DNA of 64,000 nucleotides, taken from NCBI GenBank assembly GCA_965116885.1, contig OZ220741.1, positions 2,912,001 through 2,976,000 of the forward strand, written 5' to 3'. The position numbers and the translations under genes were made by a program. The notes beneath the pieces were generated by a model. The model saw only the letters and a program-made list of their open reading frames with translations. It made no database searches and had not been told where the DNA came from. Below, in pieces: positions 8,482 to 62,353 of the stretch (within the stretch, counting starts at the first letter, position 1; each line of letters starts with the position of its first letter). This stretch comes from Candidatus Latescibacterota bacterium. Lineage in GTDB: Bacteria > Latescibacterota > UBA2968.

Positions 8482-9612
8482 TCATGCGTGGATCTGATTC
8501 AGCCAGCCTTCCAGAGTGTAGCTCGGGTCGCCTATTTCCTCCGGGCGAAGGCATGCCAGATCGGTGCGGTGTATGGGGCGGATGCCGAGGTCGGGAAGGG
8601 TGGCGCCGCGCTGGTGAAGGTCGGTGCCGTAGAGTTTTTCCAGGATGATGCCGTTGGCGTCGCACCAGTCGCCCGAGTTGAGGGTGGGCAGGCTCTCTTC
8701 GGGGTCGAAACCAGGGGCGCCGAGGTGGCGGTGGATCCATTTCAGGGCGACGGTGTAGCCGAAGTAGGGGCGATGCCCTCCCGCCGGTTCGAACCAGCAA
8801 GCGATGTGGCCGTCCGGGAAATTCGGAGCTGCGCAGGACACGGTGTTCCGGGTACCTTCCCACGCGGCACCGTCCCCCTCTGTGTCGATGATGACGTCGG
8901 CGTCGCCGTTGAGGATGAGGACGGCGCAGTGAGGCGCAGCCAGAGAGAGGAATTCCGGCCAGGTACAGAGAGTGCGCAGGCGCTGGTTCGGGACGCGGGT
9001 GCAAAATTTGCCTGTGACCGTCATGGTGTCACACAGTGCCCAACCGGAGACCAGAGCCAGCTTGAGGCGGGTGTCGAGGGCCAGCATCCAGGAGGCCTTG
9101 GCGCCGCCGAGGGAGTTTCCCGCCACACCGACGCGCTCCCGGTCGGTGTCGTTCCGGGTGAAGAGAAAATCGATGCCCCGCATTGTGTCGAAGACGAGCT
9201 TGCCCATGATGAGCCGGCCAGCCCCATCGGCGCAGGTGTGGACTTCTTCAGGATCGTGCGCCCGGGTACCCAGGTCGCCGCGGATGTGCCGCTCTTCTTC
9301 TCCGACCGGGTCGAGAACCAGGCAGGCCAGTCCGAGTTTGGCGTAGAGTTGGGGGATGTAGGTGTACTGCCACTGGCTTTTGCTGCCGCCGTGGCCGCAG
9401 GTGATTACGATGGATGGCATGGGTGCGGTGGGGTGTGCTGGTCGATAGAGTACGGAGGGGACGCGGGAACCGGGTTCGCTCGTCCAGATCCATTTTTCGA
9501 CGACGATTCCATCCCGTTCGATCTGTCCGCGGGACTCCGGAGCCAGGTCGCAGCGGACCGTGGGGATGCCCAGGAGGTCGTGCAGGGCGCGGCGCAGGGA
9601 TTCGGTTTGCAT
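8482..9612 (-). CDS. Alpha/beta hydrolase (acetylxylan esterase/dienelactone hydrolase-like)
   Basis: CGHGG, DPVGEEER, RGIDFL, nucleophile motif GNSLGG, GGH; start set at ATG 9612 because the longer ORF runs into the tmRNA. Confidence 0.82.
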   Translation of the reverse strand: MQTESLRRALHDLLGIPTVRCDLAPESRGQIERDGIVVEKWIWTSEPGSRVPSVLYRPAHPTAPMPSIVITCGHGGSKSQWQYTYIPQLYAKLGLACLVLDPVGEEERHIRGDLGTRAHDPEEVHTCADGAGRLIMGKLVFDTMRGIDFLFTRNDTDRERVGVAGNSLGGAKASWMLALDTRLKLALVSGWALCDTMTVTGKFCTRVPNQRLRTLCTWPEFLSLAAPHCAVLILNGDADVIIDTEGDGAAWEGTRNTVSCAAPNFPDGHIACWFEPAGGHRPYFGYTVALKWIHRHLGAPGFDPEESLPTLNSGDWCDANGIILEKLYGTDLHQRGATLPDLGIRPIHRTDLACLRPEEIGDPSYTLEGWLNQIHA

Positions 9613-56595: not shown

Positions 56596-57791
<1,196 letters not shown>

Positions 57792-57826
57792 ATGTTGATA
57801 TAAAAAGATAAAAGCGATTTCACAAT

Positions 57827-57861
57827 CAGCCCGTCCAGAAAGTTGGATGGGTTATTTTTTT
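57827..57861 (+). terminator. Terminator after mdh; left copy of an imperfect direct repeat
   Basis: CAGCCCGTCC-AGAAAGT-TGGATGGGTTATTTTTTT. Confidence 0.8.
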
Positions 57862-57871
57862 ATTCGCAGTC

Positions 57872-57900
57872 TTGAATATGCGGACAAAGTTGGCTATACT
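57872..57900 (+). promoter_or_regulatory. Sigma70-type promoter at the left edge of the insert
   Basis: TTGAAT-N17-TATACT, bracketed by GCAGTCTTGAA direct repeats at 57866 and 57905. Confidence 0.6.
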
Positions 57901-58015
57901 AAATGCAGTCTTGAAGCCGGTGTGCTGGTAGTTTTCATTTGAAATGTTACGCGAACTTAAGGCCCGTTTTCACTGGGGGCATTCTCCAGGACCACTTTGC
58001 CATGAGTTTTCATCC

Positions 58016-58242
58016 GGTAATTGACGGGTAATTGATAGGTAATTGATATAAAGCGGGTTAAGAAGTTGTAAATTTTACTTAACTTATTTATTTTATTGAA
58101 ATTATGTTAATTGACGGTCATTTGCTTGACGGTTGTTTGATAGAAGACCAGAAAAATGATTCGGCGGGACAGGTTTAATTTCGTAAATTTTTGTTATACA
58201 AATACTTACTGTATTTCAATTTGTTTGATGGAAACCAAATGA
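58016..58242. repeat. Non-coding module of 11-bp repeats upstream of first AlbA_2 gene
   Basis: GGTAATTGAYR x3 (58016-58048); TTGYTTGAYRG at 58122, 58133 and 58221. Confidence 0.85.
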
Positions 58243-58333
58243 GCACCGACACCACCGAACACAGTTTGGAAGTTTGTATCGGCGATATGAGGATGTAGAA
58301 AAGCCTGATTTTGACGAAAGCGAGCACGTTAAC

Positions 58334-60022
58334 ATGAGTGAAAGCCAGGACATCGCGCTCATTGACGAGTTGCGCAGTCTGCCGACAGAAACCGAATGGT
58401 TAGAGTTCAAGCGCAATCGCTATGAATCTGAACAGATCGGGGAATACCTGTCCGCGCTTGCGAATTCGGCCTGCATCGCTGCCAAGACGGCTGGCTATCT
58501 TGTCTTCGGTATTGACGATGAGACACATGAGGTCGTCGGCACAAATTTTGATCCTTATAATACCAAAGCGAAGGGCAATCAAGACCTGCTGCCCTGGGTT
58601 GGGGCGGGGTTGCATCCGAATGCAGGATTCGAGCCACGTATTGTTAATCATCCGGATGGTCGGGTCGTTGTCTTCGAGGTTGGCCCCGCGAGAGATCAAC
58701 CTGTTAGCTTTCGCGGAAAAGCTTATGTTCGCGTAGGTTCCAGCAAGACCGAACTTAGCAAGCATCCCGAGAAGGCTCGCGTGATTTGGACGCGCGGGAG
58801 CGACTGGTCCGCAGAGGTGTGTGAACAGGCGCGGCTTGATGATCTTGACCCCAATGCCCTGGTCAAGGCGCGCGAGCAGTTCGTCGTCAAGCATCCGGCG
58901 CAGGCGGATGAGGTCAAGGAGTGGGACGATGCGACGTTTCTCAACAAAGCCCGGGTTTTAAGACAGGGTGCTGTGACGAATACGGCACTGCTTTTGCTGG
59001 GACGGCCGGAATCGTCGGCTCTACTCTCGCCGATGGTGGCTAAAATTTCCTGGATACTCAAGGACGATCACAATATCGAGTTAGATTACGAGCACATTGG
59101 GCCGCCGTTCTTGCTTGCAGGAGACCGCCTTCTGAAGCGCGTCCGCAACCTCACTGTGCGCGCCCTGCCGAGTGGGACACTGTTCCCTCAAGAAATTACT
59201 CAGTACGACCCCTGGGTAATCCGCGAAGCCCTGCACAACAGCATCGCACATCAGGACTATCGTCTGCACGGACGGATTGTTGTCGTCGAATTTCCCGACC
59301 GCATTTTGCTGACCAATGTTGGGGATTTTCTGCCCGGCGATGTCGAGACGGTCATTCAACAGGACGCCCCCCAGGCCATCTACCGCAATCCATTCCTTGC
59401 TGATGCCATGGTTGAATTGAACCTGATTGACACACAGGGCGGCGGTATTAAGCGCATGTTCGATACACAGAGGAAGCGTTTCTTTGCGCTTCCAGACTAC
59501 GATTTGACGCGGACAAATAGCGTGGCCGTGAGCATCCACGGCCGCATTCTTGATGAGCGCTATACTCGGCTCCTGATGGAACGAACTGATCTGAACCTCA
59601 GTCAGGTTATGCTCCTTGACCAGATGCAAAAGGGAATGCGTATCAGCCGGGAAGATCATCGCGACCTGAAGGCCAGTGGCCTTGTTGAGGGCCGTTATCC
59701 TAACTTAATGGTCGCTGAATCGATTGCTAAGGTGACGGATGACACTGACCGTTACCTCATAGAACGCGGATTCGACAAGCAGTACTACCTGGATATGATT
59801 TTAACCTTGATCCGCGAACATGGCTCGGTCAGTCGCAAAGAAATCGATCAGGCCCTGATTTCGAAGCTACCTGATCGGTTGACAGAGGAGCAGAAGCGGT
59901 GGAGGGCTCAGAATCTCATACAGGATCTGCGTCGCTCCGGTTTGATCGTCAACCAGGGGACCCGTGCCCAACCTGCATGGATGCTCTCAGACACACATCA
60001 GGGAAGGACATTTCATACATAA
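58334..60022 (+). CDS. Schlafen/AlbA_2 domain + HATPase-like (RecG C-terminal-like) + wHTH protein
   Basis: ETEWLEFK, SALAN...GYLVFGIDD, REALHNSIAHQDY, YRNPFLADAM, IDTQGGGI; start set at ATG 58334. Confidence 0.88.
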   Translation: MSESQDIALIDELRSLPTETEWLEFKRNRYESEQIGEYLSALANSACIAAKTAGYLVFGIDDETHEVVGTNFDPYNTKAKGNQDLLPWVGAGLHPNAGFEPRIVNHPDGRVVVFEVGPARDQPVSFRGKAYVRVGSSKTELSKHPEKARVIWTRGSDWSAEVCEQARLDDLDPNALVKAREQFVVKHPAQADEVKEWDDATFLNKARVLRQGAVTNTALLLLGRPESSALLSPMVAKISWILKDDHNIELDYEHIGPPFLLAGDRLLKRVRNLTVRALPSGTLFPQEITQYDPWVIREALHNSIAHQDYRLHGRIVVVEFPDRILLTNVGDFLPGDVETVIQQDAPQAIYRNPFLADAMVELNLIDTQGGGIKRMFDTQRKRFFALPDYDLTRTNSVAVSIHGRILDERYTRLLMERTDLNLSQVMLLDQMQKGMRISREDHRDLKASGLVEGRYPNLMVAESIAKVTDDTDRYLIERGFDKQYYLDMILTLIREHGSVSRKEIDQALISKLPDRLTEEQKRWRAQNLIQDLRRSGLIVNQGTRAQPAWMLSDTHQGRTFHT

Positions 60023-60099
60023 AAATTAAAGAAAACGAGTCTAAAAAAGGGTAGTATATAAAAGAATAAATATATAAATATTTGTTTTAAAAAGATTTG

Positions 60100-60176
60100 T
60101 CCTTTAATAAATTTTAGAATATTTTGAGAGTTTATTAAAGGATTTATTAAAGGATTTATTAAAGGATTTAGCAAAG
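60100..60176. repeat. 12-bp tandem repeat TTTATTAAAGGA x3 with one upstream inverted copy
   Basis: Copies at 60131, 60143 and 60155; TCCTTTAATAAA at 60100-60111. Confidence 0.88.
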
Positions 60177-60227
60177 CCGCGTTGTTTTTCAAGCTCTCAA
60201 TTGACTATGAGCCTGAATCTTTTAACT

Positions 60228-60454
60228 TTGTTTGACGGTTGTTTGATGGTTGTTTGATGGAAAACCCGAAAAATGACACGGTAGAGCAGATTTGATGGCG
60301 AGCGACGAATTGATCCGGCCTTCGGTAGCTGGTGGATGGGACATCACCAATCTTTGATTTTCGAACCTAAATTATTGTTATTAAGATGCTTACTGTTTTG
60401 TAATTTGTTTGATGGTTGCTTGATGGTTGTTTGATGGAAAACCCACAAAATGAC
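60228..60454. repeat. Non-coding module of 11-bp repeats upstream of second AlbA_2 gene
   Basis: TTGYTTGAYGG x3 at 60228-60260 and x3 at 60405-60437, each followed by AAAACCC..AAAATGAC. Confidence 0.9.
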
Positions 60455-60478
60455 TTGGTGAGATAGGGTAGTTTATAA

Positions 60479-62353
60479 ATGGTAGAATTACGATTCGACA
60501 TCACGCCGTTTCTGGATCAAGACGAAGGCCAGCACTTTGATCGCAAGTCGTTGTATGAGGGAGAAGATGGTGCCAAACGGTCACGTAACCGCCGCGCCGT
60601 GCGGGATCAGGTCGCGGAATATGTGGCGGGCTTCGCCAATGCCGAAGGTGGTGTGCTTGTCCTGGGCATAGAGGATGACCGCACCATTACTGGGCACCAG
60701 CTACCTCAGGATGCTTTGAACAGTATCCTGAAGACCCCGAGTACTCGCTTGAAGCCCGTACAGCCCGATGGCTTTGTTATGCCGATTGAAGGGTGCGAAC
60801 TGATTGTTTTTGATGTTCCGGCTTCAGATGTTCCCGTTCAGGTAATCGGGGATGGCTTCCCGTTGCGAATGGGCGATCAGACAGTGCAATCCAGCGAGAG
60901 CCAAATCAATACGCTCAAGTTTGAAGGCATGGCGGAGAGTTGGGAAAGCCGACGATCATCAATGACTTTGGCTGATCTGGATGAGCGACTGTTAGAACGT
61001 GCACGACAAGGAGCGGGTTTATCCGCTTTGACTGATGAAGAGTATTTGCTCAAGCGCAAATTGGCCGATCGCCGAGGGCGAGGGATCGTGCTTCGAAATG
61101 CTGCGGAGTTGCTCTTTGCCCGTTATGGTCCGGACCATCCCAATGCCGGCGTCCGTCTATTTCGCGTTATTGGCACCGAGCGCTATACCGGCCCCGAACA
61201 CAATGTCGAAGAACGCCCACGCTGTGAAGGCAACTTGCCTGCGGTCATATCGGAAATTCGCAGTGTCATCAGCAGTTTGCTGCGACGTCCTATGCGACTC
61301 GTGGGGAGTCGCTTTCAGGAATCCGCCGAATATCCGGATTTCGCATGGCTGGAGGCGTTGCTCAATGCCATCGCGCACCGCGATTACAGGGTTGAAGGCA
61401 CCTGCATAGAGGTCTGGCTATTCGATGATCGCATGGAAGTGGTCAGCCCGGGCGGGCTGGTCGGCAACTTGACCACAGAAGCGTTGCTCACGCTCAAGCG
61501 CGTCCATCACAGCCGCAATCCCCGCATGATCCGGGTGCTTGTGGATCTCGGTCTCGCACGCGACCAGGGCGAGGGTATTCCGCGGATGTTTGCTGAGATG
61601 GAAGACGCTTTTTTGCCAAGGCCAGATATAGATGCGACCAACCGCAATGTCACGGTCACGCTTCGGAATACGCTTACCCTGAATGCGATGGATCGAGAAT
61701 TTATCTCGGCTCTCGGTGATATTGAGCTTTCCCGCAATGAGTTTCGGGCATTGCTTTACACGTATCGCCACGGTCAGATAGACAATGCGAGGTTGCGTGC
61801 TTTATCCGGTCTGGATACCTTAAATGCCAGTTATCTTTTGCGCGGCCTCCGTGACCGGGATTTGTTGGCACTTCATTCTCATGGCCCCAACAGCTACTAC
61901 ACATTGACTTCTGTACTGACATCGCGAGTTGGAGAGTACAAACTGGAAACCGGGGAGTCCAGAGCAAAAGATGGGGAGTTCGACACGGATGGGAGGGAGT
62001 TCGATACGGATACAGGTAAGCTTAGTGCGGATGAGGGGGAGCTCTGCGTGGATGGGAGGGAGTTCGATGCGGATGGGGGGGAGCTTCCAGGTTATATCAG
62101 AGCGCGTATTGCAAAACTTGGAAAGCGACCGCGTCGTGTGCGTGTACGTCCCATTATCTATTTAATATGCAATCAAGGAAAATGGGTAACTTCCGCTGAA
62201 CTTGCCGGTTTCCTCAACATCGGTCAAGAGAAACTAACGGCGGGTCATATTACTCCTATGATGCATAGCGGAGAACTTGTGTCACGCTTTCCAGACAAGC
62301 CCAACCACCCTCGCCAGGCTTACCGAGCCGTTGCATCCCAACGCCCGGAGTAG
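60479..62353 (+). CDS. Schlafen/AlbA_2 domain + HATPase-like + wHTH protein with low-complexity linker
   Basis: EGQHFDRKS, GFANAEGGVLVLGIEDD, EALLNAIAHRDY, FDDRMEVVSPG, SRNP, GEGI, PDKPNHPRQAY. Confidence 0.88.
   Translation: MVELRFDITPFLDQDEGQHFDRKSLYEGEDGAKRSRNRRAVRDQVAEYVAGFANAEGGVLVLGIEDDRTITGHQLPQDALNSILKTPSTRLKPVQPDGFVMPIEGCELIVFDVPASDVPVQVIGDGFPLRMGDQTVQSSESQINTLKFEGMAESWESRRSSMTLADLDERLLERARQGAGLSALTDEEYLLKRKLADRRGRGIVLRNAAELLFARYGPDHPNAGVRLFRVIGTERYTGPEHNVEERPRCEGNLPAVISEIRSVISSLLRRPMRLVGSRFQESAEYPDFAWLEALLNAIAHRDYRVEGTCIEVWLFDDRMEVVSPGGLVGNLTTEALLTLKRVHHSRNPRMIRVLVDLGLARDQGEGIPRMFAEMEDAFLPRPDIDATNRNVTVTLRNTLTLNAMDREFISALGDIELSRNEFRALLYTYRHGQIDNARLRALSGLDTLNASYLLRGLRDRDLLALHSHGPNSYYTLTSVLTSRVGEYKLETGESRAKDGEFDTDGREFDTDTGKLSADEGELCVDGREFDADGGELPGYIRARIAKLGKRPRRVRVRPIIYLICNQGKWVTSAELAGFLNIGQEKLTAGHITPMMHSGELVSRFPDKPNHPRQAYRAVASQRPE

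Follow-up and report, generated by a model that had tools for sequence, protein, structure and literature searches.

A putative cis-regulatory module of paired 11-mer arrays upstream of type I restriction hsdR and restriction-linked defence genes in Latescibacterota and other phyla

Two genes for AlbA_2 proteins in a Candidatus Latescibacterota bacterium are each preceded by a non-coding module of short direct repeats around an AT-rich core, and the question raised by the locus is what these modules do there. The window analysed is a stretch of 64 000 nucleotides (contig OZ220741.1, positions 2 912 001 to 2 976 000, assembly GCA_965116885.1); coordinates are those of the window unless stated otherwise. 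The module region sits between mdh (56865–57791) and an aminotransferase gene (63009 onward). A preliminary description, made from the letters alone, had offered two answers: recombination sites of a cassette array served by an integrase in trans, or operator arrays for the wHTH domains of the AlbA_2 proteins.

The repeats were found as described. TTGYTTGAYGG occurs nine times, always on the + strand, in two paired arrays, one per AlbA_2 gene: eight copies are exact (starting at 58122, 58221, 60228, 60239, 60250, 60405, 60416 and 60427) and the ninth, TTGTTTGATAG at 58133, carries one mismatch. When up to one mismatch was allowed the window gave 13 matches, the remaining four being dispersed 1-mismatch matches outside both modules, against a shuffle mean of 5.74 (s.d. 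2.01, largest 12); 0 of 100 shuffles reached 13. Period-11 arrays were reported by Tandem Repeats Finder at 58016–58048 (GGTAATTGATA, 3.0 copies), 60228–60260 and 60405–60437, the first of which bears out the GGTAATTGAYR variant that had been noted at 58016–58117. The GC content of the module region is 0.32–0.37, compared with about 0.55 in the genes. In the repeat alignment the segments 58103–58165, 60220–60282 and 60397–60459 (array plus tail) are mutually 68–86% identical and the AT-rich core 58184–58231 is 83% identical to 60368–60415. The preliminary description had aligned 58122–58242 with 60228–60454; this holds for arrays, tail and core, but between distal array and core module 2 is longer by a net 67 bases, and because of these its last distal and first proximal copies start 155 nt apart instead of 88. 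The repeat search found no inverted pair within the modules. A MITE or transposon was considered and rejected, terminal inverted repeats being absent. The features of the region are collected in Table 1.

Table 1. Features of the module region, in window coordinates.
Feature	Position	Strand	Details
mdh terminator hairpin and T run, then promoter-like TTGAAT-17-TATACT	57828–57853; 57872–57900	+	scan
Variant-b module	58016–58117	+	GGTAATTGAYR x3 (58016–48), AT-rich spacer, TTAATTGACGG (58107–17)
Module 1 distal array	58122–58143	+	TTGCTTGACGG TTGTTTGATAG
Module 1 spacer, 77 nt, promoter-like core	58144–58220	+	GTAA 58183–86, TGTTAT 58192–97, TTA 58206–08
Module 1 proximal array, one copy	58221–58231	+	88 nt past last distal copy
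19-codon ORF MSTDTTEHSLEVCIGDMRM*, relic of the hsdR 5' end	58239–58298	+	gap-free alignment to hsdR starts
Gene 1: AlbA_2, HATPase_c_4 and C-terminal wHTH-like end (fam8)	58334–60022	+	
12-bp tandem repeat TTTATTAAAGGA x3.3, downstream of gene 1	60131–60176	+	perfect inverted partner TCCTTTAATAAA at 60100–60111
Module 2 distal array, 3 copies	60228–60260	+	repeat and pattern scans
Module 2 spacer, 144 nt not 77	60261–60404	+	core TGTTAT 60376–81; hairpin 60330–60349
Module 2 proximal array, 3 copies	60405–60437	+	repeat and pattern scans
Beginning of another module unit (AAAACCCACAAAATGACTTGGTGAGATAGG...), joined to the gene 2 start region	60438–60478	+	comparison with G017, G004, G009
Gene 2: AlbA_2 and HATPase_c_4 (fam1)	60479–62353	+	

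Genes 1 and 2 both match PF04326 and PF13749 over the curated cut-offs. The earlier remark that they show no comparable DNA similarity is correct at that level, yet as proteins they are related (27% identity over 399 aa, E = 4e-17). The ATG at 58334 is the likelier start of gene 1 and a TTG at 58274 the less likely one. No name is given by NCBIfam for fam1, fam8 or fam9, the three AlbA_2 families discussed below. Gene 2 matches the first ~420 positions of the PADLOC pAgo model (E = 5.8e-26), which is the Schlafen-like (SLFN) plus GHKL ATPase part without the Argonaute core; it also contains an internal period-21 tandem repeat (61974–62083) coding for G-E/K-F-x-A-D-T-like heptads, the count of which varies among the genus orthologues. 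The 12-bp repeat behind gene 1 is of a type (TTTA[GT][TC]AAAGGA, 2–4 copies; also written TTTAKTAAAGGA) that follows nine of nine fam8 genes of the genus islands at 75–145 nt past the stop codon, and fam8 may therefore possess a downstream repeat array of its own. A crude detector found no period-11 arrays at the other HATPase_c_4 genes of the window's genome (seven loci). Three adjoining HATPase_c_4 genes were seen on one strand at G000:C1:4928742–4932135 (frames of 424, 495 and 509 aa), with no period-11 arrays nearby in a crude scan.

The double 11-mer was found in the window's genome (one contig, 5.56 Mb) at this locus only (5/5 matches, control 0), and pattern and blastn-short searches of that genome gave no further module copies; a query of 57795–58340 returned one 38-nt match at C1:3812667–3812704. 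The relatives were richer. Seventeen of 20 other genomes of the genus have the module, on one strand in each and always in a variable island after mdh, and many other phyla have it with the 88-nt array spacing conserved; the explanation that the preliminary description had set against itself, a module occurring only here with no phasing elsewhere, does not apply. The reversed-pattern control gave no match in any of the 168 genomes searched, and beyond the genus a single 1-mismatch match.

From these relatives the canonical unit was deduced as n 11-mers, a 77-nt spacer AAAACCCGAAAAATGACTCGG...GTAACTTATTGTTAT.AAA..ACTTACTGTTTTGTAAT and the next array, so that the last distal and first proximal copies start 88 nt (8 × 11) apart. 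Module 1 of the window is such a unit. Of 27 aligned units of the genus, 26 are exactly 99 nt long; invariant columns number 18 of 22 in the 11-mers versus 27 of 77 in the spacer, and TGTTAT is invariant. The copy number of the 11-mer among congeners ranges from 1 to 9; at 8586–8684 of one locus (L046, genome G014) the array has grown to nine tandem TTGCTTGACGG copies. The insertion in module 2 lies at about 60293–60359 (net 67 nt), with TTTGAT at both bounds, a CCGGCCTTCGG hairpin and the terminator-like hairpin at 60330–60349. The relatives lack this insert, and so does a metatranscriptome contig of a relative, in which the spacer is canonical. The 155-nt spacing of module 2 is within 1 nt of 14 × 11.

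Seventeen islands, from about 1.4 to about 22 kb, were compared. An island consists of a type I restriction–modification (R-M) locus (HsdM, HsdS, HsdR) plus cargo defence genes, among them DarT/DarG, ThsB-type TIR, OLD/AAA_15, KAP and STAND NTPases, a 5mC methylase with HATPase_c_3 and Peptidase_M78-DUF4411; the AlbA_2 families in the islands are fam1, fam8 and fam9. The window's genome has lost hsdM, hsdS, hsdR and fam9. The cassette-like look that had been remarked on is real: the 28 gene-proximal arrays of the 17 islands precede fam8 (nine), Peptidase_M78 (seven), fam9 (five), fam1 (one), a 159-aa ORF (one) or no ORF of at least 90 aa (five), G001 having been excluded from this count because its arrays differ. 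Only in the window's genome does fam1 stand behind a proximal array. Two further observations concern island genes. Between the counterparts of genes 1 and 2 in G004 (L054) hsdR is absent and a ~75-aa ORF (MKRDIKLTQSEKEELDALAALPDDQIDTSDIPE...) stands behind c-type arrays; its sequence elsewhere forms the first part of a 1059-aa 'HsdR' frame, which may accordingly be two genes or a fusion. Six islands encode, after hsdS, a 212-aa protein (L047 9252–9890 and orthologues) whose similarity to DarG is confined to the C-terminal half (NCBIfam 181 bits, under the cut-off of 250; PADLOC DarG E = 1.3e-52); it has no macro domain, and no DarT partner was seen in those islands.

The origin of the module is indicated by the short ORFs behind the proximal arrays. 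In the genus these start M-I/T-T-D-T-T-E-R-G-L-E and align without gaps with the first 50–57 nt of true hsdR genes (in G007, G002 and three other phyla), and the module is in essence the upstream region of hsdR. The length of the relic depends on the cargo: about 8–9 codons are left before M78, 14 before fam9, 19 before fam8 and 29 before a fam8 variant (fam8'). In fam9 cassettes the relic ORF overlaps the fam9 ATG (ATATGA or ACATGA), and in G009 and G017 the relic start is shifted by one codon with the frame kept. From the cargo-dependent lengths it follows that module and hsdR start were duplicated at each entry of a gene between promoter and hsdR and that the junctions are not fixed; no single crossover point is common to all of them. 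In the genus the module and the first 8–29 hsdR codons have been duplicated before genes inserted between hsdS and hsdR, and the genes so inserted belong to two AlbA_2 families and to Peptidase_M78-DUF4411.

The junction between gene 2 and its module is unique to the window's genome. Homology to the relatives resumes 7 nt before the ATG, and the fusion lies 41 nt before it; it looks like a fusion at short similarity (microhomology). In G009, G017 and G004 the ~92-nt terminator–promoter segment found here at 57828–57900 lies after hsdR, directly upstream of the gene 2 orthologue. Gene 2 would then have lost its own terminator–promoter segment, now after mdh, and have been joined to a module unit. 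What the window holds is a derived, partly orphaned copy of the module, kept before gene 1 and placed before gene 2 by a genome-specific fusion.

A scan of GTDB (one genome per species, 596 Gb) gave 113 stretches with an exact double 11-mer, where about one is expected by chance according to our own arithmetic (22-mer, four two-fold positions, 596 Gb). Eighty stretches were retrieved, 19 titled Latescibacterota and 61 other by record title; the latter titles include Acidobacteriota, Binatia, Methylomirabilota, Planctomycetota, Gamma- and Alphaproteobacteria, Deinococcus, Spirochaetes, Desulfobacterales, Haliangium and Caldilineaceae. Spacings between neighbouring arrays in these 61 were 88 nt (28 cases), 89 nt (six), 77 or 78 nt (nine) and 98 nt (four), of which the 77 and 98 classes may partly result from the counting of degenerate copies. 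Across phyla, the spacer of 26 distinct 88-spaced units is essentially free save for TAAC, TG, A and TTA, whose columns coincide with those of the genus units. The ORF ending upstream encodes an AlbA_2/HATPase_c_4 protein of ~490–500 aa at 22 of 51 loci (ten loci without a candidate and one duplicate locus having been removed), and the ORF starting downstream is HsdR at 16 of 43 and AlbA_2 at two of 43, the others including Fic/RhuM, DUF433, DUF3800 (twice) and SMC_N/AAA_15. The N-terminus of HsdR in the other phyla reads MTTDTSEKGLE.LI. Viral contigs yielded 17 stretches with the double 11-mer, none with a paired array, AlbA_2 or hsdR nearby, and these are probably unrelated. The a-type fam9 L170 of the genus is 77–79% identical to L059 and L126, from records titled Binatia, and groups with Binatia-titled homologues (100/100), not with the other fam9 proteins of its own phylum; this grouping suggests inter-phylum transfer of the gene plus the module.

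At least five variants of the 11-mer were distinguished, all with TTGAY at positions 5–9 (xxxxTTGAYxx): type a, TTGYTTGAYGG; type b, TTAATTGACGG GTAATTGACTG, to which the variant at 58016–58117 belongs; type c, CTACTTGACGG GTACTTGACTG, which in the genus precedes hsdR itself; type d, AAGTTTGATCG GGTTTTGATTY; and type e, TTTCTTGACTG TTATTTGATTG. In other genera of the phylum homologues of fam9 are flanked by the same module architecture with different 11-mers. Each of the variants a to e lies immediately behind a fam9 gene whose recognition helix is of the corresponding type. Within the genus the a-, b- and e-type fam9 genes have arrays of their own type directly behind each, and b-type fam9 genes are followed at once by type b arrays both in G002 and G003 and in other genera. 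In clade d a gene other than hsdR stands downstream, and the bracketing repeat comprises the last 13–22 nt of AlbA_2, the module and the first ~14 codons of the next gene. In the upstream flank of L195 and L196 (G135, G117) CRISPR-like repeats (GTGTTCCCCGCACACGCGGGGATGA[AG]CCG) abut a remnant of the AlbA_2 3' end, which is followed by a d-type module.

The fam9 protein has ~495 aa in the order AlbA_2–HATPase_c_4–wHTH, presumably the COG2865 architecture, and a mean column identity of 66% over 35 sequences. Its model (pLDDT 88.1) shows helix–helix–helix–strand–strand at 416–485, a succession of secondary structure that points to a winged helix at the C-terminal end; the best structural matches of the model are 3LMM (uncharacterised), Schlafen N-domains and GHKL ATPases. 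Between operator types the putative recognition helix varies (at four type-a loci, L079, L095, L085 and L091, its sequence is divergent), and the last ~70 aa follow the operator type, unlike the remainder of the protein, which has a different history. Thus two b-type proteins (L175 and L192) are 70.2% identical in the N-part and 83.8% in the C-part, compared with 79.3 and 52.9% for a b–e pair (L175 and L176) and 85.0 and 61.8% for a b–c pair (L192 and L180). Such tracking would be expected if wHTH and operator must match; it can also be explained by adjacency, one recombination tract covering both. The operator labels cluster on the fam9 protein tree with five changes versus 15.7 when shuffled, a difference to be read in the knowledge that relatives share labels anyway.

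Searches for fam9 found none, despite intact arrays, in the window's genome and in G007, G008, G011, G013, G019 and G001 (E ≤ 1e-30), nor in three of five other-phylum genomes that have the module plus hsdR (E ≤ 1e-20). Since several genomes with intact arrays are without it, fam9 is only a candidate binder; fam8, fam1, another protein of the locus or a host factor are possible alternatives. Of the two answers offered at the outset the operator reading is the favoured one, but not in the form proposed, as operators of genes 1 and 2: the module derives from the hsdR upstream region, and its 11-mer type follows the wHTH of fam9, a third AlbA_2 family that is missing here.

The explanation to which we give slightly better than an even chance is that the module is a promoter flanked by helically phased operator arrays and copied, together with the hsdR start, before inserted defence genes. 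Its native site would be before hsdR, the gene of the nuclease/motor subunit, in a widespread type I R-M family in which the fam9 gene would usually lie between hsdS and the module. Arrays separated by whole helical turns (88 bp) would flank a promoter-like core, TAAC...TGTTAT...TTA, with the proximal array overlying the presumed transcription start. Both arrays would be bound head-to-tail on one face by a protein specific for their sequence, the likeliest candidate being the C-terminal winged helix of the fam9 protein encoded upstream; once bound it may loop the promoter and so gate transcription of the toxic downstream gene. The direct repeats do have a period of about one helical turn and a fixed orientation, and the arrays are a whole number of turns apart across a diverged spacer. 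The putative promoter between them was assigned by consensus; a simple sigma-70 scan did not call this core, and two −35/−10 assignments are possible. The repeated copies of about 100–190 bp may then act as homology for gain, loss and shuffling of genes, and homologous recombination between module copies most simply accounts both for the cassette shuffling and for the state of the window's genome.

It is unlikely that nothing more than a promoter and leader was duplicated, with no dedicated binder, and that the 11-mers were kept by recent duplication, gene conversion or horizontal transfer or act as curved DNA or as −35-like (TTGAC) sigma decoys. The −35-like TTGAY common to all variants would suit such a role, as would the intact arrays in genomes without fam9 and the drift of the copy number from 1 to 9, but recent copying fits poorly with an exact 11-mer and an 88-nt spacing that are kept across phyla while the spacer has almost fully diverged, and the 11-mer variants are discrete, not drifting.

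We consider an RNA-level element improbable, in which a 5' leader made up of the proximal array and the short ORF would control translation or stability by way of a uORF or of a protein that binds RNA. A permissive Rfam search of 57700–60600 returned only two chance snoRNA matches (E > 4), the consensus fold of the 27 aligned units reached −1.06 kcal/mol with no compensatory pairs, and a 4-bp CCGA/TCGG hairpin, 84% paired, is too weak (it was matched by 14–48 of 500 shuffles). The proximal array does lie between promoter core and start codon, the fam9 relic ORF overlaps the ATG and the moved relic start of G009 and G017 stayed in frame, all as a leader would have it; the distal array, on the other hand, precedes the core, a spacing in multiples of 11 makes no sense for an RNA, and length and sequence of the relic ORF vary with the cargo. 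Contigs from an RNA library cross the arrays, which favours a leader weakly as they may derive from DNA: the metatranscriptome contigs (small shares only) span genes and cross arrays in relatives and are uninformative on starts, strand and even transcription.

Little probability is likewise left to site-specific cassettes, in which the arrays would be arm or attachment sites of a recombinase in trans that works through integron-like circles. Module copies do bracket unrelated genes, cassette content varies between close relatives, and in clade d the repeat of AlbA_2 3' end, module and ~14 codons of the next gene stands on both sides of AlbA_2. The recombinase is what fails to appear: PF00589 matched none of the 51 representatives of island proteins that were tested (standing for 51 of 64 clusters, the other 13 being short ORFs or ORFs with antisense overlap), and of its four matches in the window's genome the nearest is more than 850 kb away. 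The modules contain no inverted repeats or hairpin of the attC type, the cassette junctions fall after different numbers of hsdR codons according to the cargo (8–9, 14, 19 or 29), and the gene 2 junction resembles a microhomology fusion. The proposal of tyrosine-recombinase sites is accordingly not supported; the scan of genome and relatives that had been suggested to decide it revealed recurrence before diverse genes, with no tyrosine recombinase among the island proteins tested.

The favoured reading, a promoter between operator arrays, was compared with known systems. The closest published one is RptR, a 79-aa repressor encoded by the first gene of a type I R-M/DarTG2 island, which binds three 9-bp direct repeats whose palindrome TAGCTA overlies the −10 box (PMC12255303). 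The present module resembles it in that short direct repeats lie at the promoter, here a putative one, of a type I R-M island with cargo genes between hsdS and hsdR, and in being conserved along with type I R-M. In contrast to the RptR sites so described (PMC12255303), the repeats here are 11 bases long, have TTGAY as their core and form two arrays at a distance of 88 bp before hsdR and cargo genes, and the candidate protein differs. The RptR motif TTTAGCTAA is not enriched in the window (six matches at up to one mismatch versus 8.3 expected, one of them in the island at 60167).

The C proteins of type II R-M systems are encoded in the locus and determine when the restriction gene is expressed; as small HTH dimers they bind to inverted repeats, the C-boxes. 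A locus-encoded candidate DNA-binding protein is common to both cases, whereas the present arrays consist of direct repeats and the candidate protein is large and multidomain; no small C gene was seen in the islands. In parC/ParR of plasmid R1 and in omega-type operators two clusters of ~11-bp direct repeats flank the promoter core and are bound cooperatively on one face. That repeat layout is alike, but the islands have no partition or replication genes and their context is restriction and defence. The Pho box of the OmpR-PhoB family consists of tandem 11-bp direct repeats, each with seven conserved and four variable bases, on which winged helices bind head-to-tail; tandem 11-bp repeats are shared, whereas fam9, the candidate protein, is devoid of a receiver domain and the arrays flank the putative promoter. 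As in the attI/attC arrays of integrons, unrelated genes are each bounded by the same short element and relatives vary; unlike them, there is no integrase, no hairpin-forming inverted repeat and no fixed crossover, and each module has a promoter-like core. BrxR/CapW proteins combine a WYL wHTH with a sensor, are encoded beside diverse defence systems and are predicted to gate their expression. A wHTH with a sensor part near defence genes is common ground, but fam9 joins AlbA_2 to a GHKL-like ATPase and the site architecture is different. No description of the module was found in the literature searched, which excluded bioRxiv supplements and subscription journals, and the 11-mer string occurred there in unrelated primers or genes only.

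The module is a real, widely conserved and apparently undescribed element, whose probable cis-regulatory function is deduced from its layout and company. A more speculative extension, possible rather than probable, is that fam9-type AlbA_2–HATPase_c_4–wHTH proteins represent a previously unrecognised class of controllers, acting on type I restriction enzymes and on cargo defence genes, with at least five co-evolving specificities, and that the module with the hsdR start is an integrase-free gene-capture platform for cross-phylum homologous exchange and co-regulation. To our knowledge, type I restriction enzymes were long considered to be without transcriptional control and RptR (2025) is the first regulator described for them; the module would be another such control element after RptR, not related to it and phylogenetically far more widespread. 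It would give a DNA target for the large uncharacterised family of bacterial Schlafen-like AlbA_2/HATPase_c_4 proteins, and it would account at the sequence level for the hsdS–hsdR gap as a hotspot of defence cargo, because each insertion carries or duplicates the hsdR promoter–operator and start codons. The 22-base signature with the 88-bp spacing is a simple marker by which such loci can be located, and the layout of the module points to an undescribed control and shuffling of restriction-linked defence genes.
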